Positions 1-55,430 of a stretch of DNA of 64,000 nucleotides are shown here, piece by piece. Every line of letters begins with the position of its first letter. Within the stretch, counting starts at the first letter, position 1. The notes under the pieces are model-generated. The model saw only the letters and a list, made by a program, of their open reading frames with translations. It did no database searches and was not told the origin of the DNA. Source of the stretch: Escherichia phage PBM-1; the sequence record PV029540; one strand, 5' to 3'. The translations under genes were made by a program, and so were the position numbers.

Positions 1-56
1 ACTGGCCATTCACACTTTTCGCAGTGGGCATTTTTAAGAATACTTGTTTGGCTCAT
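1..56 (-). CDS. hypothetical protein, N-terminal part only (continues past window start)
   Basis: Minus-strand ATG near 56 overlapping the stop of the upstream gene (ATGA coupling); truncated by the window edge. Confidence 0.25.
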   Translation of the reverse strand, partial: MSQTSILKNAHCEKCEWP

Positions 57-265
57 AACCATGTAACCTTTAAACAATATTCTTCTACGTGTTGTTTACG
101 ACCTTTCTTATCAATAAAGGTATATTCAACGAATGTTCCAATATAGTCTTTATCTACACCATGTGGACTATTAATTGGGCATTTAGTACGGCAAATGCGT
201 TCCCATTGACGAATAATTTCCACTTTGTTTTTAGGATCAAACGGATGCGGGTAATGTACTTTCAT
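53..265 (-). CDS. hypothetical protein (70 aa)
   Basis: ORF in the co-directional early gene chain; overlaps neighbour stop. Confidence 0.45.
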   Translation of the reverse strand: MKVHYPHPFDPKNKVEIIRQWERICRTKCPINSPHGVDKDYIGTFVEYTFIDKKGRKQHVEEYCLKVTWL

Positions 266-716
266 AATCCACCACTATTAAATCAATATCAGGAGTAAAC
301 ATGTCGATTAATTTAGAAACCTTATCCCAATCGCCGCCAGCAATACCGCAACCTATACGTGGAATGTAAATTACTGGTTTAAACAAAAGGGTTTCTGCCT
401 GTAGATTTAATTCTATCATGCAGTTTACTAAAGCACCATAATCAAGATTAGGACCCGGTTCGTATTGCGTATACAGGTTATAGCATATACCAAATCCCGT
501 AGGACTATGTTTAAAAACAATAGACATATCGCCTAATTTATCACGAGAACCGTACTCGGTAGTGGTTTTATCTATTTCTAAAATTTTGGGATAGGCTCTT
601 GCTAATTGACCCGCTACGCCAGAGCCCATTGTGTGGAAGCAATTGCACCCGTGCGCAATAATATTACCTTGAAGAAATAGGGCGACAATATCGCCCTTGA
701 TATATTTTACAATCAT
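237..716 (-). CDS. macro-domain-like protein (putative ADP-ribose binding/processing)
   Basis: 159 aa; N-terminal GDI..AHGCNC..GSGVAGQ and C-terminal IPRIGCGIAGGDW motifs resemble the two glycine-rich macro-domain motifs (compare E. coli YmdB); by-eye call. Confidence 0.55.
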   Translation of the reverse strand: MIVKYIKGDIVALFLQGNIIAHGCNCFHTMGSGVAGQLARAYPKILEIDKTTTEYGSRDKLGDMSIVFKHSPTGFGICYNLYTQYEPGPNLDYGALVNCMIELNLQAETLLFKPVIYIPRIGCGIAGGDWDKVSKLIDMFTPDIDLIVVDYESTLPASV

Positions 717-1060
717 CTAGTACTCAATCCTCGATTATAAGAATCTACTAAACGGTCAACCATTGAATGACAAGCGGCTTTATCTTTCTCCTCCGCAACT
801 GAACATTCTAAGGTATTCCACTTTTTAGCATATCGTTTTAACAATGTATCATTTTTGTATCTGCTTGATTTATCTCTTTCTCCGTCTTTATATGCATATA
901 TTAATTTCTGCGCAAATTCAGCTTGGCATGCTTTATTTTTCCCACAATAATCCGCGGCAGTACGGTTTACATACTCTCTAATTTCAGTATATGATGTATC
1001 TGCTAACGCAGAAGCAGAAAATGAAATTAATCCTATACATAAAACCAAAATTTTAGTCAT
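713..1060 (-). CDS. predicted secreted/periplasmic protein
   Basis: 115 aa; hydrophobic N-terminus MTKILVLCIGLISFSASALA looks like a cleavable signal peptide; 4 Cys in mature part. Confidence 0.55.
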   Translation of the reverse strand: MTKILVLCIGLISFSASALADTSYTEIREYVNRTAADYCGKNKACQAEFAQKLIYAYKDGERDKSSRYKNDTLLKRYAKKWNTLECSVAEEKDKAACHSMVDRLVDSYNRGLSTR

Positions 1061-1598
1061 TTACTATTTCCAAAAGTTTATTATTTTTAAGGTAATTAGC
1101 CTTTTCTAGGACTTCAGAAGCATATTTAGAACCTGCTTTAACATTCCATCCCGAATTATAAGAGGATATCGCCTTTCTTATATCGCCCTTATGTATATTT
1201 AACCAATAAGAAAGTTCAATGTACGCCCAGGAAGCTGAATTGGACCGTTTATTCAACATTCTTTTTATTTCAGCATCGGTCATATTATAACCAAGTTCCT
1301 TAACTCTTGCTCGCATAGTAGGCAAATAATTTTGGAACATTCCATAGGCATGATGCTTTGGTTTAGATTTTAAATTAACTCCGGCAGAGCTTTCTTGCCA
1401 CAAAATAGCAGCCATTATATGACCCAATCCGCTCTTATGGATGTTTTTGTGTGTTTTATATTTTCCATCCTTAGAAAATTGTTCCCCGAATTGATATGCG
1501 TAGCGCATGTTATCGAGTTGGACATTACTGAAAGTATGCTCGGAGCTATGCGCCATCATTGAAATGGCCAATAGACCAGCGAGTAGTGCTTTTCTCAT
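1053..1598 (-). CDS. predicted periplasmic lytic transglycosylase-like protein
   Basis: 181 aa; signal-peptide-like N-terminus MRKALLAGLLAISMMAHS; SLT-like motifs ILWQESS and YGMFQ. Confidence 0.55.
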   Translation of the reverse strand: MRKALLAGLLAISMMAHSSEHTFSNVQLDNMRYAYQFGEQFSKDGKYKTHKNIHKSGLGHIMAAILWQESSAGVNLKSKPKHHAYGMFQNYLPTMRARVKELGYNMTDAEIKRMLNKRSNSASWAYIELSYWLNIHKGDIRKAISSYNSGWNVKAGSKYASEVLEKANYLKNNKLLEIVND

Positions 1599-1605
1599 GC
1601 TTACC

Positions 1606-2067
1606 TCATTGAGTTTTAATTACTGCTTTAGAAGCCTTTCCTGGTAAACGACGACTGTTAATAATTGCCATCCTACATTGAAGTGACGGGTCTTTGAACT
1701 TCGCATTAGGTTTACAAACTGTAAATCCAAGCCAAAGATTTCCATCTGTGATTTCTAAACGTCCAGGACGGTATTCAACCCCATCAATAAAATCCTCATC
1801 AATGTCAGGACGCGGAGGCATACTCAGGAATTCATTAACTTCTAAAACATGGTCTTTTATTTTGTGGAATAATTCAAAAACATATGTCTCATCAATCTCC
1901 CGTTGAATTGCACGATCAAGAAGATGTTGAGAATATTTTAGATGAAACGATGAGACCCCTGCTGCTTTTGATGCCTCACGAATCTCATTGTTAATTTGAC
2001 GAAACTCCGACTCAAAGTGACGACGAAGCTTATTTCGACGGATAAAAACTTCTGTGTTGATAGTCAT
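1606..2067 (-). CDS. regB: RegB sequence-specific endoribonuclease
   Basis: 153 aa, near-identical to remembered T4 RegB (MTINTEVFIRRNKLRRHFESEFRQ...). Confidence 0.9.
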   Translation of the reverse strand: MTINTEVFIRRNKLRRHFESEFRQINNEIREASKAAGVSSFHLKYSQHLLDRAIQREIDETYVFELFHKIKDHVLEVNEFLSMPPRPDIDEDFIDGVEYRPGRLEITDGNLWLGFTVCKPNAKFKDPSLQCRMAIINSRRLPGKASKAVIKTQ

Positions 2068-2126
2068 GTTATTCTCCTCTTAACTGATAGAAAAATTATA
2101 CCACAGTCAAGAGGAAAAGTAAACAG

Positions 2127-2405
2127 TTATTCTTTAAATCTAATCAATTTATTCATAGACTTTGAAACTTCTGCACGGACCTCATGTAAGTTTTTAAGCT
2201 GTTCAAGACGCTGCTCATAGTAAGCAATTTCATCTTCTTCGAGACAGTCCTGTGAATCTTCTTTAAGATAACGTGCATAGTCCTGGAAAGCTTTACGGAC
2301 TACTTCTTGGAAGTCATCAAGACTTTGAATTTTCTTAGGAGCAACAGATACACGACGAGGGGCAGTATAATACTCATAACCAAACCCTGCGCTTAATTGA
2401 GCCAT
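2127..2405 (-). CDS. hypothetical protein (92 aa from second Met)
   Basis: ORF 2127-2447; internal ATG at 2405 overlaps upstream stop (TAATG coupling). Confidence 0.5.
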
Positions 2406-2707
2406 TAATATTTTTCCTCTGGTTGGAACACAGCACGACAAGCCCACATACTAGCTTCTTTGAGTTTCGTTTTAGCAATAGTTAACTGATCGAGGCTTTC
2501 AGCATAATTCTTTGCGAATTCGTAGTCTTCACAATTATCTAGTGCTTCCCAGAATTCATCATATAAAGCGTCAAAGATAAGTCCTAAACGAACTTCAGCG
2601 TCTTTGATAGCATTCACTTTATCGATTTTCTCTTCAGTGTGCGGCTTATAACCTTTAATATCTTCAATCATATTTGACTTCCTCGCCCGTTCCCAAATCA
2701 TATTCAA
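2405..2707 (-). CDS. hypothetical protein (100 aa)
   Basis: ORF in co-directional early chain. Confidence 0.5.
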
Positions 2708-2885
2708 CTAAACGAATAGGTTCATAAATGCCATATCCCTGAACAGAAATTTCTGTCGTAGGATAAATTCCACTAATATCACCCATATTCCACGCTTCAT
2801 TAAATTGCTGTTCGCCTGAATTACTAAACCATTCTGCGAAAGCATTTAACACATCTTTAGAACCTTCAATAATTATCTTTGCCAT
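2664..2885 (-). CDS. hypothetical protein (73 aa)
   Basis: ORF in co-directional early chain. Confidence 0.45.
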   Translation of the reverse strand: MAKIIIEGSKDVLNAFAEWFSNSGEQQFNEAWNMGDISGIYPTTEISVQGYGIYEPIRLVEYDLGTGEEVKYD

Positions 2886-3259
2886 TACAAGCTCTCAGTA
2901 AAGGTACGAGCGATAACGTCGCGCTGCTGTTCCGGAGTCAGAGAGTTAAAGCGAACTGCATAACCGGATACACGGATGGTCAGCTGCGGATATTTTTCCG
3001 GATGCTTAACTGCATCTTCCAGCGTTTCACGACGCAGAACGTTAACGTTCAAGTGTTGACCACCTTCAATTTTAACTGTAGGTTGTGTTTCAATTTCAAT
3101 TTCACGGGCATGCAAACCATAGAAAATTTCTGGGTCTACAAAAGAGTCCTCTTTAAAGGTTTTAGAGACAATAATTCGTGCTTGAATACCATCTTCAAAA
3201 TAAATAGTACCTTTATGTGTGCCTTCAAGAATTTGATATGCTTTCATATACCCTCTCAA
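2885..3259 (-). CDS. GrcA/YfiD-like autonomous glycyl radical cofactor
   Basis: 124 aa; C-terminal ~60 aa ([63 protein letters not shown]) matches E. coli GrcA glycine-radical domain; T4 is known to encode such a protein (Y06I). Confidence 0.85.
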
Positions 3260-3585
3260 TTAGAAAATAAATTTATCCAAGATTGCTCTTTAATTAAAAA
3301 TGGCTCAGAATCATATGCCATCAAACTTTGGGTGATTAGTCCTTTAAAAGGTCCATCAATAAATTCCATGGTAAAATATGGAATTTTATTCATTAATCTT
3401 GCATTAGGAGCAGTGCACAAAACTCTGCATCCTTTGAATACGCCTTTTTGTAATTTGTATTGCTTAGGATAAAATTCGCTCAAGACGTTGTTATTTGCCA
3501 AAATTTCAAAATGATTCACCAACTTATTTTTAATAGTTTTTGGTGAAAAATAAAGATATTCGAAAAGCTGTGTGTCTGTCATCAT
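3256..3585 (-). CDS. hypothetical protein
   Basis: ORF 3256-3636; likely start at the MM pair coupled to upstream stop. Confidence 0.5.
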
Positions 3586-4124
3586 TGCATTCCGATTACG
3601 AAAAACTGCGGACGAGTAATACCACCGATGCAGCATTTACTATTGCAACAGTATTGTACAGTTTCAATATGAATATCGTAAATTTTATCCATATCAGGAG
3701 ATTTAACAGGCTCATCGATTATATACAGAATTCGAGAAAGCGTTAAACCTCTGAACTTGCTACCTCTATTACCAACAAAACTACGGACAGAATCAGTAAA
3801 TAAACGGAATCGAATATCATCGCTAGAATAACGAGAAAATTCTTTTTTAATGTGGTCCGCAGAAATTTTAGCGTAAGATGAAGTATTAGAAAGAACAATA
3901 ACTGTTCCACCGTCATACAACCAATTAGCAGCAAAGTTAGTCACAGCAATTGATTTACCGGATTGACGTCCACCATCTAGTCGAAGTGTGCAGTATTCTT
4001 TAAATAAATGTGGCGAATCAGGTACATAAAATCCACTATTACAAATTTCTTCTACTCTAGCATCAGAATGGTGTGTAAAAACATTCATCAGGGATAGATA
4101 AGGACCAGTTAAAAATGTTCTCAT
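3582..4124 (-). CDS. hypothetical P-loop NTPase-like protein
   Basis: ORF 3582-4172; Walker A-like GGRQSGKS and Walker B-like ILYIIDEP; start set at Met17 to avoid overlap with denV. Confidence 0.45.
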   Translation of the reverse strand: MRTFLTGPYLSLMNVFTHHSDARVEEICNSGFYVPDSPHLFKEYCTLRLDGGRQSGKSIAVTNFAANWLYDGGTVIVLSNTSSYAKISADHIKKEFSRYSSDDIRFRLFTDSVRSFVGNRGSKFRGLTLSRILYIIDEPVKSPDMDKIYDIHIETVQYCCNSKCCIGGITRPQFFVIGMQ

Positions 4125-4134
4125 TTTGTTATCT

Positions 4135-4686
4135 CTAAATTTGGGCCATTCCATGGCGCATGAATTTTCCATTTCTGTATTTACCCATTACCGCACTTGG
4201 GCTCGACCTTATTACAGGTTGGCGGGAATCCCTCATAGAATCATGAGGTCCAGCTTGTTCCCATGTTATTTGAATGTAAATATTTTTGCCGTAGTATTTA
4301 TACCAGTGTGGCTTCATTAAAATTTTTTCATCGAGTCGTTGTTGACTCAACTTAATAGCTGATTTGCATGGGTTATAATCATTTTTCCATTCTGCTGGAA
4401 TATCGCTGATGTCAGGAACTTCAGTATCTTTTATACTAAACCCACGTTTTAAGCATTCCATTATAATGTCTGATTGACGCTTTCGCAAAAATTCTAACTT
4501 ATCGTAAAAGAACGTGACATGACCAGAACCTAAAATAAACTCGGAAGATATTTTAAAATCTTTAACCCGTTTACCATTTGCCACGTGTTTACGAACTATA
4601 CCAAAAACACGTGGCAATTCACGGTATTCCGCAATTAAATGTTGGTCAGCAAGTTCAGATACTAAAGTCAAATTAATACGAGTCAT
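4135..4686 (-). CDS. denV: endonuclease V (pyrimidine dimer DNA glycosylase), C-terminally extended relative to T4
   Basis: First ~136 aa about 75% identical to remembered T4 DenV ([17 protein letters not shown]...WYKYYGK); ORF continues ~45 codons beyond the T4 stop position. Confidence 0.8.
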
Positions 4687-4689
4687 TTT

Positions 4690-4740
4690 ATCTCTCCAAG
4701 TAACTGTGAATATACTATCACAATTCTAGGAGAAAATAAA
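4690..4740 (-). promoter_or_regulatory. sigma70-type early promoter-like element upstream of denV
   Basis: Minus strand GTTTAT-N18-TAGTAT then GGAGAG SD; near-duplicate of the element at 5050-5100. Confidence 0.4.
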
Positions 4741-4743
4741 CTG

Positions 4744-5046
4744 TTATTTACCTTTAATTACTTTAGCTGCTTCGATAGCCGCTTGCTGAAGGTCATCCAT
4801 AGACATACCGAATTTAGAAGCAAAGTTATCAATTTTCTTTTCGACAGCATTCAAAGGCTTGGCCTGTTTACCTTCATTAGCGCCAGGAAGAGCGAGAATA
4901 CGCTCTTTGTCAATATAAAGGCTTACAAGTTTCTTACGGTCTTTATCGGACAAATCGTGAAATGAATGGGCCTTTTTATTTATAGCGGCTTCTAATTTAC
5001 CTGCACTCACTCGCGCTTCAGTAATAAATTCTTGATATGTTTTCAT
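4744..5046 (-). CDS. ipII: internal protein II-like (capsid-targeted internal protein)
   Basis: 100 aa; N-terminal MKTYQEFITEA capsid-targeting sequence; position between denV and e. Confidence 0.7.
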   Translation of the reverse strand: MKTYQEFITEARVSAGKLEAAINKKAHSFHDLSDKDRKKLVSLYIDKERILALPGANEGKQAKPLNAVEKKIDNFASKFGMSMDDLQQAAIEAAKVIKGK

Positions 5047-5049
5047 ATG

Positions 5050-5100
5050 TTTCCTTTAAATATTTTAATTAGTAATTGTGAATATATTATCGCAGTTTTA
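5050..5100 (-). promoter_or_regulatory. sigma70-type early promoter-like element upstream of ipII
   Basis: Minus strand GTTTAT-N18-TAATAT; ~40-nt repeat shared with 4690-4740. Confidence 0.4.
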
Positions 5101-5117
5101 GGAGAAAATAAACAACT

Positions 5118-5648
<531 letters not shown>

Positions 5649-11577: not shown

Positions 11578-11653
11578 TGGTCGAGGCAGTAGGGATCGAA
11601 CCTACGACCTAGGACTTAGAAGGTCCTTGCTCTTCCTTCTGAGCTATGCCCCG
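11578..11653 (-). tRNA. tRNA-Arg (anticodon TCT)
   Basis: Manual cloverleaf: acceptor CGGGGCA/TGCCTCG, anticodon stem AGGAC/GTCCT, loop CTTCTAA, T-loop TTCGATC, encoded CCA. Confidence 0.75.
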
Positions 11654-11657
11654 TAAT

Positions 11658-11733
11658 TGGGGTGACCGATGGGAGTCGAACCCATGACTACGAGAATCAC
11701 AATCTCGAGTTCTACCAACTGAACTACGGCCAC
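11658..11733 (-). tRNA. tRNA-His (anticodon GTG)
   Basis: Manual cloverleaf: anticodon stem CGAGA/TCTCG, loop TTGTGAT, T-arm ATGGG-TTCGACT-CCCAT, encoded CCA. Confidence 0.7.
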
Positions 11734-11846
11734 ATTAATACCTACTCCAACAATCAAGATGTCTTCACACGAAATTAAGAGAAGAGTGATCAGTTCAACC
11801 CTATAATCGCGTCAAGTAGATATTAATGTGACAGTTGTCACAAATT

Positions 11847-11922
11847 TGGCGGACGTGATAGGATTCGAACCTATAACCAATCGCTTAACAGGCGATCGCT
11901 CTGCCATTGAGCTACACATCCA
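11847..11922 (-). tRNA. tRNA-Asn (anticodon GTT)
   Basis: Manual cloverleaf: anticodon stem ATCGC/GCGAT, loop CTGTTAA, T-arm ATAGG-TTCGAAT-CCTAT, encoded CCA. Confidence 0.7.
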
Positions 11923-11926
11923 AATT

Positions 11927-12012
11927 GGTGGGGAGTGATGGAGTCGAACCACCCGAGTCGCAATGACAATGGATTTACAGTCCACACCGCTACCTCTACG
12001 GGATAACTCCCC
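11927..12012 (-). tRNA. tRNA-Tyr (anticodon GTA), long variable arm
   Basis: Manual cloverleaf: acceptor GGGGAGT/ACTCCCC, anticodon loop CTGTAAA, ~86 nt. Confidence 0.7.
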
Positions 12013-12018
12013 TTAATT

Positions 12019-12093
12019 TGGTGGCCCTGGGTGGAATTGAACCACCATCTGGCGATTATGAGTCGCTTGCTTGAACCTTCCAGCTACAGGGCC
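12019..12093 (-). tRNA. tRNA-Met or Ile2 (anticodon CAT)
   Basis: Manual cloverleaf: acceptor GGCCCTG/CAGGGCC, anticodon loop CTCATAA; not initiator-like. Confidence 0.65.
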
Positions 12094-12094
12094 T

Positions 12095-12170
12095 TGGTGC
12101 TGATTGACGGAATCGAACCGCCGACCTTCTCATTACAAGTGAGTTGCTCTACCTACTGAGCTAAATCAGC
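12095..12170 (-). tRNA. tRNA-Thr (anticodon TGT)
   Basis: Manual cloverleaf: acceptor GCTGATT/AATCAGC, anticodon loop CTTGTAA. Confidence 0.7.
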
Positions 12171-12175
12171 AAAAC

Positions 12176-12265
12176 TGGCGGAGGCGATAGGATTTGAACC
12201 TATGAGTCGCCGGAGCGACTGCCGGTTTTCAAGACCGGTGCATTAAACCACTCTGCCACGCCTCC
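12176..12265 (-). tRNA. tRNA-Ser (anticodon TGA), long variable arm
   Basis: Manual cloverleaf: anticodon stem CCGGT/ACCGG, loop CTTGAAA, ~90 nt. Confidence 0.7.
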
Positions 12266-12271
12266 AAATAT

Positions 12272-12880
12272 TTATATATTGTTAATTTGATTTAGAATTC
12301 TTTTTGCTTGAGTATGACTTACGCCAATATGCTTAGCATATTTAGATAATTCGCCTCGTTTAGAAAAATCATATAATTTAGAAATTTCTATTCTTCTTTT
12401 TCTTTCATCCGCAGAAACTTTTGCTTCGTTTGCTTTTGCTATTTTACGTTTAGCTTCTTGAGAATGAGTTTTACCAGCAAAGCCATTCTTCATTAATCCA
12501 TTTGAAGACCATCCTTTTAATTTTCCGTTAGAATGTGCCTTTTTAACACCCAATGAAATTAATTCACGTTGCTGATCTGTCATAGGATAATTATTTATAT
12601 GATCCCATCCACCTTCACCACCAAGTTTTAAATTATACACATCTGATCTATTTAAAAACTCTTCTGTGACAATATTTTTCTCGGCTTCAAGCATAGATTC
12701 TTTATCATCAAAATACTCTAATATTTCTTTAGAAAAATTTTCTATACCATACTTATCTTGGGCTCTTTTTAATAATTTACCGGAACCCATATATCCATCA
12801 TCTAAATTTTCGGTAGAATGCACACCAATATAAATTTTATTATTAATTTTATTTGTTATTTTATAAAGATAAAAATGCAT
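12272..12880 (-). CDS. GIY-YIG homing endonuclease (SegB-like)
   Basis: ORF 12272-12922; GIY-YIG motif YLYKITNKINNKIYIGVHS near N-terminus if started at Met15; embedded in tRNA cluster as segB is in T4. Confidence 0.75.
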   Translation of the reverse strand: MHFYLYKITNKINNKIYIGVHSTENLDDGYMGSGKLLKRAQDKYGIENFSKEILEYFDDKESMLEAEKNIVTEEFLNRSDVYNLKLGGEGGWDHINNYPMTDQQRELISLGVKKAHSNGKLKGWSSNGLMKNGFAGKTHSQEAKRKIAKANEAKVSADERKRRIEISKLYDFSKRGELSKYAKHIGVSHTQAKRILNQINNI

Positions 12881-12926
12881 ATCAGTCCCTAATAAAGAAC
12901 TGAGCGTCTCACGACGAGTCATAAAT

Positions 12927-12981
<55 letters not shown>

Positions 12982-12995
12982 GCCATTATACGATA

Positions 12996-13082
12996 TCCGC
13001 AAATTTGGTGCGAGAAGTGGGACTCGAACCCACAAGGAAATCATTCCGCAGCATTTTAAGTGCTGTGCCTTTACCAATTTGA
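12996..13082 (-). tRNA. tRNA-Leu (anticodon TAA), long variable arm
   Basis: Manual cloverleaf: acceptor GCGAGAA/TTCTCGC, anticodon stem CAGCA/TGCTG, loop CTTAAAA, T-arm GTGGG-TTCGAGT-CCCAC; lies under the spurious plus ORF 12926-13225. Confidence 0.7.
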
Positions 13083-13098
13083 CCATTCTCGCGCTATA

Positions 13099-44971: not shown

Positions 44972-45603
44972 TGAATGAACCCCAATTACTAATTGAAACT
45001 TGGGGTCAACCTGGCGAAATTATTGATGGTGTGCCAATGCTTGAATCTCATGATGGAAAAGACCTCGGTTTAAAACCTGGTTTATACATCGAAGGAATAT
45101 TCATGCAAGCGGAAGTCGTCAATAGAAATAAACGTCTTTATCCAAAACGCATATTAGAAAAAGCGGTAAAAGACTATATCAATGAGCAAGTTTTAACAAA
45201 ACAAGCTCTCGGAGAATTAAATCATCCTCCACGCGCTAAAGTTGACCCGATGCAAGCCGCTATCATTATAGAAGATATGTGGTGGAAAGGAAATGACGTA
45301 TACGGACGAGCTCGTGTTATTGAAGGTGACCATGGTCCTGGAGATAAATTAGCAGCTAATATTCGTGCCGGATGGATTCCAGGAGTTTCTTCTCGTGGAT
45401 TAGGTTCATTGACTGACACAAATAAAGGTTATCGTATCGTAAACGAAGGATTCAAATTAACTGTAGGTGTTGATGCAGTATGGGGTCCAAGTGCTCCAGA
45501 TGCATGGGTAACCGTGCTTTTCCGCGGTTTTTCTTATAATAATAAGCGAAATCACGACGCCAGTATCCAGATTTCGCGTTATCAATACACAATACAATTT
45601 TAG
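44971..45603 (+). CDS. 21: gp21 prohead core protease, C-terminus replaced by read-through into antisense rnh
   Basis: Position and size fit T4 gp21 through about aa 181 (~45513); the remaining 29 aa are the reverse-complement reading of rnh codons. Confidence 0.7.
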   Translation: MNEPQLLIETWGQPGEIIDGVPMLESHDGKDLGLKPGLYIEGIFMQAEVVNRNKRLYPKRILEKAVKDYINEQVLTKQALGELNHPPRAKVDPMQAAIIIEDMWWKGNDVYGRARVIEGDHGPGDKLAANIRAGWIPGVSSRGLGSLTDTNKGYRIVNEGFKLTVGVDAVWGPSAPDAWVTVLFRGFSYNNKRNHDASIQISRYQYTIQF

Positions 45604-51612: not shown

Positions 51613-54597
51613 ATGGCTACTTTAAAACAAATACAATTTAAAAGAAGCAAAACTGCAGGTCAACGTCCTGCTGCTTCAGTATTAGCCGAAGGTGAATTGG
51701 CTATTAATTTAAAAGATAAAACAATTTTCACAAAAGATGACTCAGGCAGTGTTATAGAATTAGGTTTAAAATATGGAGGAACAATTGATGGTTCTTTAAC
51801 TGTTAATGGAAGTATAATTGGAAATTTAACAGGTAACGCTGCAACTGCAACGAAATTGCAAACACCTAGGAAAATTAATGGTATATCTTTTGATGGGTCA
51901 AAGGACATTACCTTAACTCCATCTGACATAAATGTCAATAGCACAACGTTTATAAAAAATAACGGCGAATTACCGGTTGATGCTAATTTAGATGAGTATG
52001 GGCCTGTTGAAGAATATCTTGGAGTTTGGTCGAAAGCAACTTCAACCAACGCTCAACCAGCAAATAAATTTCCAGAAAAAAATGCCGTAGGTGTGCTAGA
52101 AGTATTTGTGGCCGGTCAATTTGCTGGTACTCAGAGATATACAACCAGATACGGAAATGTTTATATTCGTTCCTTGACTGCTACATGGAACGGAGTAAAT
52201 GGTCCGTGGAGTGTGTGGCGAAATATTCAATCCGGTACTCGTCCACTGTCAACAACAATTGATCTTAATGATCTAGGAGGTGCTGAACACTTTGGCTTGT
52301 GGAGGAATAGTTCAAATTCCATTGCTACCTTTGACAGAAATTTCCCAGAAGAGGGGTCGTCCGCTCAAGGTCTTTTGGAAGTATATGAAGGTGGAAACTA
52401 TTCTCGCACACAGAGATATACAACCAGATTTGGTGTTGTTTATACTCGCTGTCTTACTGCTGCGTGGAATGCTTCTGCGCCTAAATGGGGACCGTGGCAA
52501 CAAGTCGGTAATGTCACACCGGCGACTTTCTATGACGGAGACCTGAATGATTTTAAAACTCCTGGGTTATATAATATTTTAGGTACTGATGCCGTTATTA
52601 ACTGTCCTACAGGTGAAGGTTTACCAGCCGTTATTGTTGGTTTGCTGGAAGTTAAACAGCGTGCTTCTGGTGGTGCTATTTTCCAAAAATTTACTACTGC
52701 CGGAACAGGTACAACTACTCGCGGACGTATTTTTGAGCGTGCATACACTAATGGTGTTTGGGGTACATGGAACGAAGTATATACATCTTATTCTCTGCCA
52801 ATTACTTTGGGTATGGGTGGTATTAAAGCTCAATTAGCGGAGTTAGATTGGCAAGCCTTTGATTTTGTCCCTGGTAGTATGTTTAGCGTTCCTTTGAATA
52901 AAATAAAGAACATGCCAGCAAATATGGATTGGGGGACGATTGATGGAAACTTGGTTATGTTTTCTGTCGGTCCTAGCGAACATACTAGCACAGGGCGTAC
53001 TGTTCAGGTTTGGCGTGGTACTGTATCCCAGACAAACTACCGTTATTTTGTCGTTCGTGTATTCGGTAATTCAGGAAATAGAACTTGCACAGTTCGTCGT
53101 GTTGTTCTTGAAGATGGTCGCCACAAATGGACAGCGCAGCAAGATTTTAATGGCGCAGTTAACTTCGGTGCTCCTACCAATTTTAACTCTACTGTTAACC
53201 TTAATAACACTACCACTTTTAAAACAGAAGTTAAATTCCGCTCATTGAATGCATTTAAAATGTACGGCGGTAAGTTTGGCGCAATTTTCCGTAATGATGG
53301 AGAGAGTCTTTATATTCTTTCCACCGACGAAGATGATCAAGATGGAAACTTTAATACAAATAGACCTTTCCGTTATGAATTGAGAACTGGTGATGTTACT
53401 TTAGGTGGTACTAGTGGTGCTAACGTTTTAAAATTAAAACGTGATTCTCTCACCGCATTTTTTGGTGGTGATATTAATATAAAAGGCTTGATGACTTTTG
53501 ACGCTGGACGTTTAGGATCACGAGATTATTTTAAATTTAACCATTGGGGTGATAGTAATAATGCGCGTGATAACATTATTCAGTTAGAAGACAGCAAAGG
53601 AGTTCATTTTTCTACTGAACGTACTTTAGCGACTGGTGCAATTAAAACTAAATTCTTTGGTGAAGTTGAATCCGATGGTAGATTGATTATTAAACGTCCG
53701 GGTGATTCTATTGTATTATCAGCACCTGCTAGTAATTCTTTGCATATTCGTGGTGACGTAGACGGGACTAATAACTGGTATATTGGTAAGGGTGGTGATG
53801 ATAATGGATTAGCGTTCTATAGTTATGCTACTAATGCTGGTGTATACATTACAAACGCAGGAGATATCACGCTAAGTCCAAAAGGCGTCGAAATGGCTCA
53901 TGTTAATAACGTTCGATTATATGTTCATGGTGAACGTTGGACCGCTAGTCAACCAGGTGATTGGGGCAACCAATGGCGAGTAGAAGCGCCAATATTCGTC
54001 GATCATGGTTATGTTGGACCAGATAGTTATTATCCAATTATTAAAGGAAGAAGTGTAGTCACCAATCAAGGGTTTGTAACTGCCGTCGATCTTGGTATTC
54101 GTCGTATCCCTAATAATTGGGGACAAGCAATTATTCGTGTTGGATCTGCGGAGGCTTCTCCTGATGCTGGTCATCCTAACGCGATATTCGAGTTCCACTA
54201 TGATGGGTTCTTTTATGCACCAGGAAATGGAAGTTTTAATGATGTGTATATTCGTTCCGATGGTCGTCTTAAGATTAATAAAAAAGAGCTAGAAAACGGA
54301 GCGGTTGAAAAAGTTTGCCGACTGAAAGTTTATACTTACGATAAAGTTAAGTCTATTAAAGACCGTAGTGTTATTAAACATGAAGTTGGTATTATTGCGC
54401 AGGATCTTGAAAAGGAATTGCCAGAAGCTGTATCTAAAGTTGAAGTTGATGGATCTGATGTTCTGACAATTTCTAACTCTGCTGTGAATGCTCTTTTAAT
54501 TAAGGCCATTCAGGAAATGAGCGAAGAAATTAAAGAATTGAAAACACCTTTCTTCACTAAAATTGCTCGTAAAATTAGAAATTATTTTAAATTCTAA
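51613..54597 (+). CDS. 37: gp37 long tail fibre distal subunit with C-terminal intramolecular-chaperone-like domain
   Basis: 994 aa; N-terminal 50 aa conserved with T4 gp37; C-terminal ~110 aa carry an auto-processing chaperone-like signature ([16 protein letters not shown]). Confidence 0.85.
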
Positions 54598-54629
54598 CAA
54601 CACGGGGCTTTGCCCCTTTGGAGAAAATT

Positions 54630-55430
54630 ATGGCAGTAGTTGGTGTTCCTGGTTGGATTGGAAGTTCATCCGTAAATGAAACAGGACAACGATGGATGAG
54701 TCAAGCGGCTGGTCAATTAAGATTGGGTGTTCCTTGCTGGATGAGTCAATTTGCAGGTCGCTCAAGAGAAATTATTCACACACTTGGAGCAGACCATAAC
54801 TTCAATGGTCAATGGTTCCGAGATAGATGTTTTGAGGCAGGTAGTGCACCTATAGTGTTTAATATCACCGGAAATTTGGTATCATATTCTAGAGATGTTC
54901 CTTTATTCTTCATGTATGGAGATACACCAAATGAATATGTTCAGTTGAATATTAGCGGTGGAGCTCATATGTGGGGCAGAGGTGGACAAGGTGGATGGAC
55001 TCATTCTGGTGGGGATGGTAATGGTCAACAGGGTGGGCATTGTATTCAAAATGACATTGGTGGTCGATTAAGAATTAATAATGGTGGAGTAATTTGTGGC
55101 GGTGGCGGCGGTGGCGGCGGTATCGCTTATCGTCCTCACTCTGGTGCAAACTGGCAAGATATTGGTGGCGGTGGAGGAAGACCATTTGGCCCAGGAGGTG
55201 GCGGTGGTTATTCAGGAGGCGCTGCTTCTTACGATGGCCCAGGAGGTGGTTATAATTATGGTAATGCTCACTCCGGTCAGGGTGGTGATGCTGGTGCAAA
55301 TGGACAAAATGCCTGGTATGATGGCGGTAAAGTACTAAAAGTCGGCGCTGGCGGCGCTGCTGGTTATGCCGTCATAGGATCAGCACCAACATGGCAAAAT
55401 GTTGGAATAATATATGGTCCAAGAGTATAA
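54630..55430 (+). CDS. 38: gp38 receptor-binding adhesin (T2-type, glycine-rich motifs)
   Basis: ORF 54618-55430 starts at TTG; ATG at Met5 with GGAGAA SD; conserved N-terminal [13 protein letters not shown]...; C-terminal poly-Gly islands separated by short variable segments. Confidence 0.85.

Follow-up and report, generated by a model that had tools for sequence, protein, structure and literature searches.

In this study we describe the gene vs.6 of Escherichia phage PBM-1 (sequence record PV029540), of which a stretch of 64,000 nucleotides, called the window throughout, was analyzed. The gene is the vs.6/Y06I ortholog of a T4-type phage and encodes a stand-alone glycyl-radical protein of the GrcA/YfiD kind. 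The C-terminal half of this known spare-part gene has quite probably been overwritten again and again by the grcA gene of the host, through recombination. On balance it also seems likely to us that such recurrent, host-templated conversion keeps the C-terminal half in lockstep, at the level of the DNA, with grcA of the main enterobacterial host species of each phage lineage. The parts of the gene on which this argument is built are the following (positions are those of the window; GC stands for G+C content and GC3 for G+C content at third codon positions):

2885 to 3247, minus strand: vs.6/Y06I ortholog, a GrcA-type autonomous glycyl-radical protein of 120 amino acids, with the start codon ATG at 3247-3245 and the stop codon TAA at 2887-2885
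3071 to 3247, minus strand: phage-type N-terminal half, codons 1-59, AT-rich (GC 0.33, GC3 0.17), a diverged homolog of the GrcA N-terminal half
2885 to 3070, minus strand: C-terminal half, the glycyl-radical domain, codons 60-120 and the stop codon, corresponding to GrcA 67-127 and PflB 697-759 (Pfam PF01228)
2895 to 3069, minus strand: core of the putative E. coli-derived tract, 173 of 175 nucleotides as in E. coli grcA (98.9%), with mismatches at 3052 and 3023, both synonymous
2885 to 2894, minus strand: last 10 nucleotides of the gene (the GAGAGCTTGTAA region), in phage-lineage states, with mismatches to E. coli at 2894 and 2890; holds the 3' end of the tract
2954 to 2974, minus strand: RVSGYAV radical motif, R92 to V98, with the Gly95 codon GGT at 2963-2965; invariant in 17 phage and host sequences

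Residues E61 to L120 of the phage protein are identical to residues 68-127 of E. coli GrcA (60/60), and the identity extends to the DNA: positions 2885-3069 match grcA in all 5,426 complete E. coli genomes at 97.8% identity over 185 nucleotides (blastn), all phage/E. coli differences inside the shared stretch being synonymous. The similarity to host grcA sets in abruptly with GAAGG, in the EGGQH motif, and runs to the stop codon, and upstream of the tract no DNA similarity to host grcA could be detected. The domain itself is recognized by Pfam (Gly_radical, PF01228, residues 60-101, E = 2.2e-18), and residues 58-120 align to PflB 697-759 including the radical glycine (phmmer against PDB, 1H16/1CM5, E = 4.8e-26). 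A reading of the same DNA from the sequence only had noted about 60 host-identical C-terminal residues with the RVSGYAV motif, which we can confirm with the radical glycine at Gly95, and the protein and nucleotide alignments to E. coli GrcA and T4 Y06I that it had proposed as a check gave high identity at both levels. It had left the choice between a recent capture and strong constraint; the capture stands, but constraint on the protein alone is excluded because the synonymous sites match those of the host as well.

The composition of the gene is divided in the same way. The window belongs to a T4-type (Tequatrovirus) genome with a mean GC of 0.36 over the 64 kb, and the C-terminal half, with a GC of 0.484, falls into the top 1% of 186-nucleotide windows; its GC3 is 0.45 vs 0.17 in the N-terminal half, and it uses host-type codons (CTG, CGT, CCG) within a genome of 36% GC. 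When the whole 64 kb were compared to E. coli by megablast, in three runs, no further near-identical E. coli DNA was found in the window, the remaining matches being weaker tRNA-like ones and prophage tail-fibre sequences at 80-87%.

The N-terminal half had been taken as unrelated to GrcA in the sequence-only reading, a view that we have to correct. When the N-terminal halves are compared alone, phage residues 22-60 align to E. coli GrcA 28-67 with 35% identity over 40 amino acids (blastp, E = 2e-6), the hidden Markov model of the GrcA equivalog (TIGR04365) aligns to phage residues 20-120, and an alignment of 17 sequences reveals N-terminal motifs common to phages and hosts (xQI near the start, ARxIV[SA]K and RE[IV]x[IV]E..P.V[KR][IV]EGGQ). 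The protein scores below the equivalog cut-off (154.6 vs 170 bits; E. coli GrcA reaches 233.9) because its N-terminal half has diverged. With its N-terminal half homologous to that of GrcA, the gene is an old, full-length GrcA homolog in which a phage-ameliorated N-terminal half is joined to a young, refreshed C-terminal half, and not a fusion of a host domain to a foreign one.

As to the donor, the core tract shows 2 mismatches in 175 nucleotides to E. coli, 4 to a cryptic Escherichia species, 14 to Citrobacter, 23 to K. pneumoniae and 30 to Salmonella, and in phage OES_C-2 the core is identical to E. coli (0/175 mismatches); the OES_C-2 gene also bears an in-frame deletion of 6 nucleotides in its N-terminal half. 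Synonymous divergence (dS) to E. coli in the C-terminal half lies between 0.05 and 0.17 in six E. coli phages, the corresponding values for host grcA being 0.39 between E. coli and Citrobacter and 0.98 between E. coli and Salmonella. The genes pflB and tdcE were considered as donors and rejected: grcA matches the open reading frame (ORF) at 97.8% and the two other genes give only weaker, secondary E. coli matches, so that grcA is the donor gene. We infer from these comparisons that the tract in the window came from E. coli itself. Between host species the N- and C-terminal halves of grcA have similar dS, hence the host gene evolves as one unit and the direction of transfer is from host to phage. 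Transfer from phage to host was rejected on this equality of the host halves and on the private variants of the window, which occur in 0 of the 5,426 E. coli genomes (best match 97.8%).

The relative age of the tract was assessed in an alignment of 2.3 kb around the gene from five Tequatrovirus-type and two Mosigvirus-type copies. Between the two clades divergence amounts to 6-57% per 60-nucleotide window, but only to 0.3-3% at gene positions 180-359. Fixed clade differences are found at position 170 and from position 360 on, and none at positions 171-359. The N-terminal half contains 13 of them; at its rate 8.5 fixed synonymous differences would be expected in the C-terminal half, where we found 1, located in the last codon (P = 0.002). 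The variants that occur inside the tract are all confined to one or two phages and are derived with respect to the E. coli state. The last ~10 nucleotides are again lineage-specific, for example GAGAGTCTA, which is common to Mosigvirus, Slopekvirus and Karamvirus, and because these nucleotides are still in phage-lineage states the tract ends, on its 3' side, within the ORF, which is a requirement of homologous exchange. Taken together, the alignment indicates that the host-like stretch is younger than the phage DNA that flanks it. A Mosigvirus-type vs.7-vs.6-vs.5 block, 94% identical to the window, was also seen in Escherichia phage Av-05 (NC_025830), which is filed under Vequintavirinae/Avunavirus; either the taxonomy or the assembly of this record looks odd.

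A second donor is found in Klebsiella phages. Jiaodaviruses infecting Klebsiella carry, at the same locus next to regB, a gene with an N-terminal half homologous to that of the window (79% nucleotide identity, dS about 1.1), and over the C-terminal segment 77 Klebsiella-phage records are 95-99% identical to grcA of K. pneumoniae. The K. pneumoniae grcA used here was not among the 80 genome loci listed; the reference is a chromosome that PLSDB lists as a plasmid. At the 22 sites that separate E. coli from K. pneumoniae, E. coli phages have 21-22 E. coli-type states and Jiaodaviruses 15-19 K. pneumoniae-type states, with the exceptions lying at the tract edges. In the core of phage KPV15 we counted 1 mismatch in 158 nucleotides to K. 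pneumoniae, 10 to K. aerogenes and 20 to E. coli, vs 9 in 22 to K. pneumoniae at its 3' end (Fisher P = 1e-8). The Jiaodavirus Roth19 has 3 mismatches in 113 nucleotides followed by 14 in 67, from which its tract would seem to be shorter or older than that of KPV15. These patterns point to two host donor species, E. coli and K. pneumoniae, in different phage lineages; the capture is not a one-off event. Several records touched by this comparison are irregular. The RefSeq copy of KPV15 (NC_055715; locus L100, 425-786) is split into two coding sequences by a deletion of 1 nucleotide in a T run, so that the gene is a pseudogene unless the deletion is a sequencing error. In PLSDB some chromosomes, whole or in part, are entered as plasmids (CP125156.1, LR134122.1), among them a K. 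pneumoniae record of 5.37 Mb, and in LR134122 an extra A breaks the frame of K. aerogenes grcA.

More than 1,500 phage records contain homologs of vs.6 or other GrcA-like genes, with T5-like, Vibrio and jumbo phages represented, and the C-terminal segment occurs at an identity of at least 95% to E. coli grcA in 638 independent phage records, T4 among them. In Slopekvirus, Karamvirus, Krischvirus, T5-like and Vibrio phages the C-terminal half shows a divergence of 15-30% from all host grcA genes sampled. Slopekvirus phages of Klebsiella differ from Klebsiella-type hosts at no amino acid but at 28-32 nucleotides. An exact host-type protein that persists in spite of nucleotide drift suggests selection for the host protein sequence, and the same pattern could equally have arisen by older conversions followed by synonymous drift. 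In the Krischviruses FL38, G2248 and JK32 (loci L012 267-683, L014 267-683 and L015 265-678) the N-terminal parts are 3-4% different and the C-terminal halves differ at 24-66 of 186 nucleotides, in one 50-nucleotide patch between FL38 and G2248; no close E. coli donor was found for these divergent halves (matches reach 73% at best). In JK32 the grcA-like gene is directly followed downstream by a gene for an HNH endonuclease.

Among uncultured phages of the IMG/VR database, copies from human-associated metagenomes (loci L122-L127, L137 and L139) bear the Pasteurellaceae-type signature LEDA[VI][NQ]NPDKYPQL (in the NNPDKYPQL form). Their nucleotide identity to grcA of Haemophilus and Gallibacterium is 80-84%; our panel did not include the likely host species. 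Two sets of IMG/VR candidates were rejected. Locus L132, 91% identical to Yersinia and at first sight a third host tract, is a bacterial grcA with a full host N-terminal half on a 'viral' contig, and loci L173-L183 are bacterial pflB genes; these contigs are probably prophage-flanking or misclassified bacterial DNA. A third host-specific tract was not found in IMG/VR.

How could the C-terminal half have come to follow the host? We propose that the gene is old in T4-like phages and that its N-terminal half has diverged to phage composition, while homologous recombination with grcA of the infected host, in the form of gene conversion, would periodically overwrite the C-terminal half. Recombination of T4-type phages with homologous cloned DNA is well established. 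During infection, fragments of host DNA might recombine with the homologous ~185 nucleotides of vs.6, and both ends of the tract would be set by the limits of phage-host homology, the GAAGG of EGGQH at the 5' end and the last ~10-25 nucleotides of the ORF at the 3' end; the boundaries would be the same each time because tracts reach only as far as the homology does. Each conversion would raise the identity and thereby favour the next one. Purifying selection for a domain that fits pyruvate formate-lyase (PFL) of the host and its activase (PFL-AE) may fix the amino acids, with synonymous sites drifting until the next conversion.

To our knowledge T4 Y06I is one of only two spare-part proteins for which there is biochemical evidence. 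According to a paper citing Wagner 2001 (PMC8683613), Knappe and co-workers reported that YfiD and T4 Y06I are radicalised by PFL-AE and restore the activity of PFL that has been cleaved by O2 at Gly734. In the same account YfiD's N-terminal half (1-60), which is disordered, is needed for binding the cleaved enzyme, and its C-terminal half (61-127), which is structured, replaces the lost PFL segment. Since the window protein has the same C-terminal half and is 98% identical to Y06I, this mechanism is our default for it. The host activase PFL-AE would put the radical on Gly95, the C-terminal domain, a copy of PflB ~697-759, would dock into PFL cleaved at Gly734 so that catalysis is restored, and the N-terminal half would aid binding to the cleaved PFL. 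As a consequence the phage might sustain the production of acetyl-CoA and formate in micro-oxic, gut-like infections. That it maintains host fermentation during infection, as the sequence-only reading had it, can reasonably be supposed from the biochemistry reported for T4 Y06I.

Several other explanations of the host-like half have to be weighed. A single segment of E. coli grcA could have been captured in one ancestor and then spread by phage-phage recombination among co-infecting T-even phages. T-even phages do recombine freely, the N-terminal halves of the two clades are ~88% identical, which is enough for crossovers, the record of Pu-Krd-SF1 looks intermediate between the clades in its N-terminal half, and a derived GAG at position 177 of the C-terminal segment is common to all E. 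coli-type tracts except that of T4. However, the edges of the island (170 and 360) coincide with the limits of phage-host homology instead of falling just anywhere in the phage DNA, crossovers between phages should carry flanking phage markers along, and the K. pneumoniae-type tract of the Jiaodaviruses needs a second host-to-phage event anyway; we regard such a spread as unlikely. We consider it highly improbable that the whole of grcA was captured once, long ago, and then held by very strong purifying selection with no later exchange with the host. The protein of the C-terminal domain is indeed extremely conserved (40 invariant columns in phages and hosts), and the rate of nonsynonymous change (dN) in this half is about 0. 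Selection on a protein does not keep synonymous sites, though, and these are kept here (2/175 mismatches, host-type codons in a genome of 36% GC); where recent exchange is lacking, as in Slopekvirus and T5-like phages, they are 15-26% diverged with the protein conserved, and the tract is moreover younger than its flanks. An artefact, be it host contamination, a chimeric assembly or pick-up during laboratory propagation on E. coli, might come to mind in view of an unexplained junction in the window at 45,512/45,513, which opens the assembly to suspicion. We give this next to no credence: the segment is present in 638 independent phage records, in frame and at the same position, T4 included; only the OES_C-2 copy is identical to E. 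coli, the copies bearing private mutations, and isolates obtained on Yersinia or Salmonella have kept their own lineage's tract.

It is also conceivable that the protein serves another function, as a decoy of PFL-AE, as a binder of intact PFL that redirects carbon flux, or as a spare part for a phage NrdD. The N-terminal half, which governs binding of cleaved PFL in YfiD, is only 35% identical to that of the host, the score of 154.6 falls short of the GrcA equivalog cut-off of 170, and an early genomics paper, in which vs.6 was one of 11 ORFs of unknown function conserved in all five T4-like genomes compared, guessed at a role in nucleotide metabolism (PMC1524935). Against this, T4 Y06I is reported to reconstitute O2-cleaved PFL in vitro (PMC8683613), the C-terminal domain is of the PFL type and not of the NrdD type, with YfiD and PflB as the best PDB matches, and the exact match to host GrcA suits a fit to host PFL and PFL-AE. 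We hold such other functions to be quite improbable.

Recurrent conversion by host grcA remains our preferred explanation, and a number of points weigh against it. We know of no in-vivo role of vs.6. Its function is taken second-hand, from a paper citing the original study. The sample is small, the base-level analysis covering about 25 phage and 83 host sequences, and so is the number of sites (22 diagnostic ones; 7 vs 1 fixed synonymous differences). Among E. coli phages, a tract captured once and then passed from phage to phage would likewise leave an island free of fixed differences. Tequatroviruses isolated on Yersinia retain the E. coli tract, PSE-D1 (isolated on Salmonella) and Nispero (isolated on K. 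aerogenes) retain the K. pneumoniae tract, an Enterobacter phage carries an E. coli-type protein variant where Enterobacter hosts have another, and the copies of T5-like phages, Karamvirus, Slopekvirus and Krischvirus have no close host donor in the panel. The retention of the lineage tract in the Yersinia, Salmonella and K. aerogenes isolates means that conversion must be rare on the timescale of isolation and propagation. Finally, the flanking homology is very short (about 6 nucleotides at the 5' side and 10-25 at the 3' side), so that microhomology, or an older copy of greater similarity, may have been required for the initial event of each lineage.

The gene lies in a T4-like setting. The order tk.4, vs, vs.1, regB, vs.3-vs.8, denV, ipII, e known from T4 is kept in the first 6 kb of the window, all on the minus strand, with the run regB, vs.3-vs.5, vs.6, vs.7, vs.8, denV, ipII, e at 1-5,600. 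The window protein is identical to T4 vs.6/Y06I (NP_049730) at 118 of 120 amino acids and occupies the same locus between regB and denV, as the comparison to Y06I in the sequence-only reading implied; the nucleotide identity to vs.6 of T4T is 98.3%, and the closest phage record over the locus is 99.4% identical. PHROG 1209 is matched over its full length (positions 1-121, E = 5e-63), and the PDB entry 6OWR (YfiD) with E = 4.6e-42. The mechanical ORF call, 2885-3259 on the minus strand, opens at a TTG. The ORF is real, but its upper coordinate is 12 nucleotides too long: the start is almost certainly the ATG at 3247-3245, because it yields 120 amino acids, has an AGAGGG Shine-Dalgarno sequence ahead of it and gives the same length of 363 nucleotides as the annotated T4 vs.6. 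The adjoining features are:

3251 to 3256, minus strand: Shine-Dalgarno-like AGAGGG, 3 nucleotides before the ATG, overlapping the TGA of the upstream gene (3258-3256); same layout in T4
3256 to 3636, minus strand: upstream neighbour, vs.7 homolog (PHROG 2049)
2664 to 2885, minus strand: downstream neighbour, vs.5 homolog (PHROG 1986), whose ATG overlaps the vs.6 stop codon (TAATG)

The ORF of 120 amino acids is thus hemmed in by the stop and start codons of its neighbours and encodes a small stand-alone protein without the catalytic barrel of PFL; the phage-host DNA similarity stops exactly at the vs.6/vs.5 overlap.

Elsewhere in the window some observations deserve mention. Before the junction at 45,512/45,513 the genes portal (20)-67-68-21 are 99.4% identical to Tequatroviruses, the match stopping inside gene 21, and at 45,513 a match of 89% to T4 sets in that starts at T4 position 150,424, within rnh, and continues into gene 34. 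Some 43 kb of the normal T4 map (22, 23, 24 ... 32, 33, 59) are missing at this point, and 0 of 952 matching phage records span it; a deletion genome, a misassembly and a chimeric contig are all conceivable. Positions 51,613-55,430 contain ORFs for a gp37-like distal tail fibre and a gp38-like adhesin with DNA matches of 80-87% in a few E. coli prophage tail-fibre genes, and the highest GC of the window (0.575, at ~55.1 kb) lies inside the adhesin ORF. Nine tRNA genes (Arg, His, Asn, Tyr, Met, Thr, Ser, Gly, Leu) are located at 11,578-13,092 on the minus strand; the tRNA-Tyr region matches a tRNA-Tyr on a plasmid-sized E. coli record at 90.5%.

Neither the gene nor its annotation or biochemistry is new, and the copy in the window adds nothing to the biochemistry. 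It shares with T4 Y06I the run vs.8-vs.7-vs.6-vs.5 between denV and regB and the same E. coli-like C-terminal half, and differs from it by T54 (P in T4), by R73 (the E. coli state; H in T4) and, where the tract ends on its 3' side, by a slightly different set of mismatches to E. coli. Like E. coli GrcA/YfiD (TIGR04365, IPR011140) it is a stand-alone glycyl-radical protein of ~14 kDa, with a homologous N-terminal half and identical last 60 residues, but it is 7 residues shorter, its N-terminal half is AT-rich and phage-specific, and it lies in a run of phage early genes and not in the ung-grcA context of the host. The C-terminal domain of PflB (PDB 1H16/2PFL) is the same piece, the one that oxygen cleavage removes or inactivates; the window protein lacks the catalytic barrel of PflB. 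The GrcA-like genes of T5-like, Slopekvirus, Karamvirus, Krischvirus, Vibrio and jumbo phages have the same two-part architecture and an invariant radical domain, but, unlike the window, no recent host tract.

The nearest parallel in kind is that of psbA and psbD, for which intragenic recombination between host and cyanophage was reportedly described by Zeidner et al. in 2005. In T4-like cyanophages, intragenic host-phage recombination has left these genes with patchy GC and exchanged segments (Sullivan et al. 2006, PMC1484495). As in those cases, vs.6 is a host-derived metabolic gene of T4-like phages in which segments appear to have been exchanged with the host copies: a segment closer to the host is set off by a break in composition, is younger than its flanks and has different donors in different lineages. 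The vs.6 segment differs from psbA/psbD in being a single defined domain whose boundaries agree between phage genera, in having donors that can be named to the species (E. coli, K. pneumoniae) at an identity of 99% or more, and in that only the direction from host to phage is seen. Our literature searches, with most subscription journals outside their coverage, found no prior account of the DNA identity between vs.6 and grcA or of a host-specific replacement; this silence is weak evidence of novelty.

In conclusion, T4-type phages are strictly lytic and degrade the DNA of their host. Nevertheless one of them carries 175 nucleotides that are 99-100% identical to a host gene, and in sister genera the corresponding tract is that of the host species of those phages. 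Should the pattern hold at population scale, it would be a clean and datable case of host-to-phage gene conversion outside the photosynthesis genes of cyanophages, and a natural experiment on how exactly a phage domain must match host PFL and its activase. If our explanation is true, a coliphage gene would record recent host history and might be used as a host marker at the species level, and vs.6 would offer a tractable model of conversion from a host to a lytic phage and of why a phage has to reproduce a host protein domain exactly. The findings support the view that T-even phages are adapted to the fluctuating oxygen conditions of the gut.

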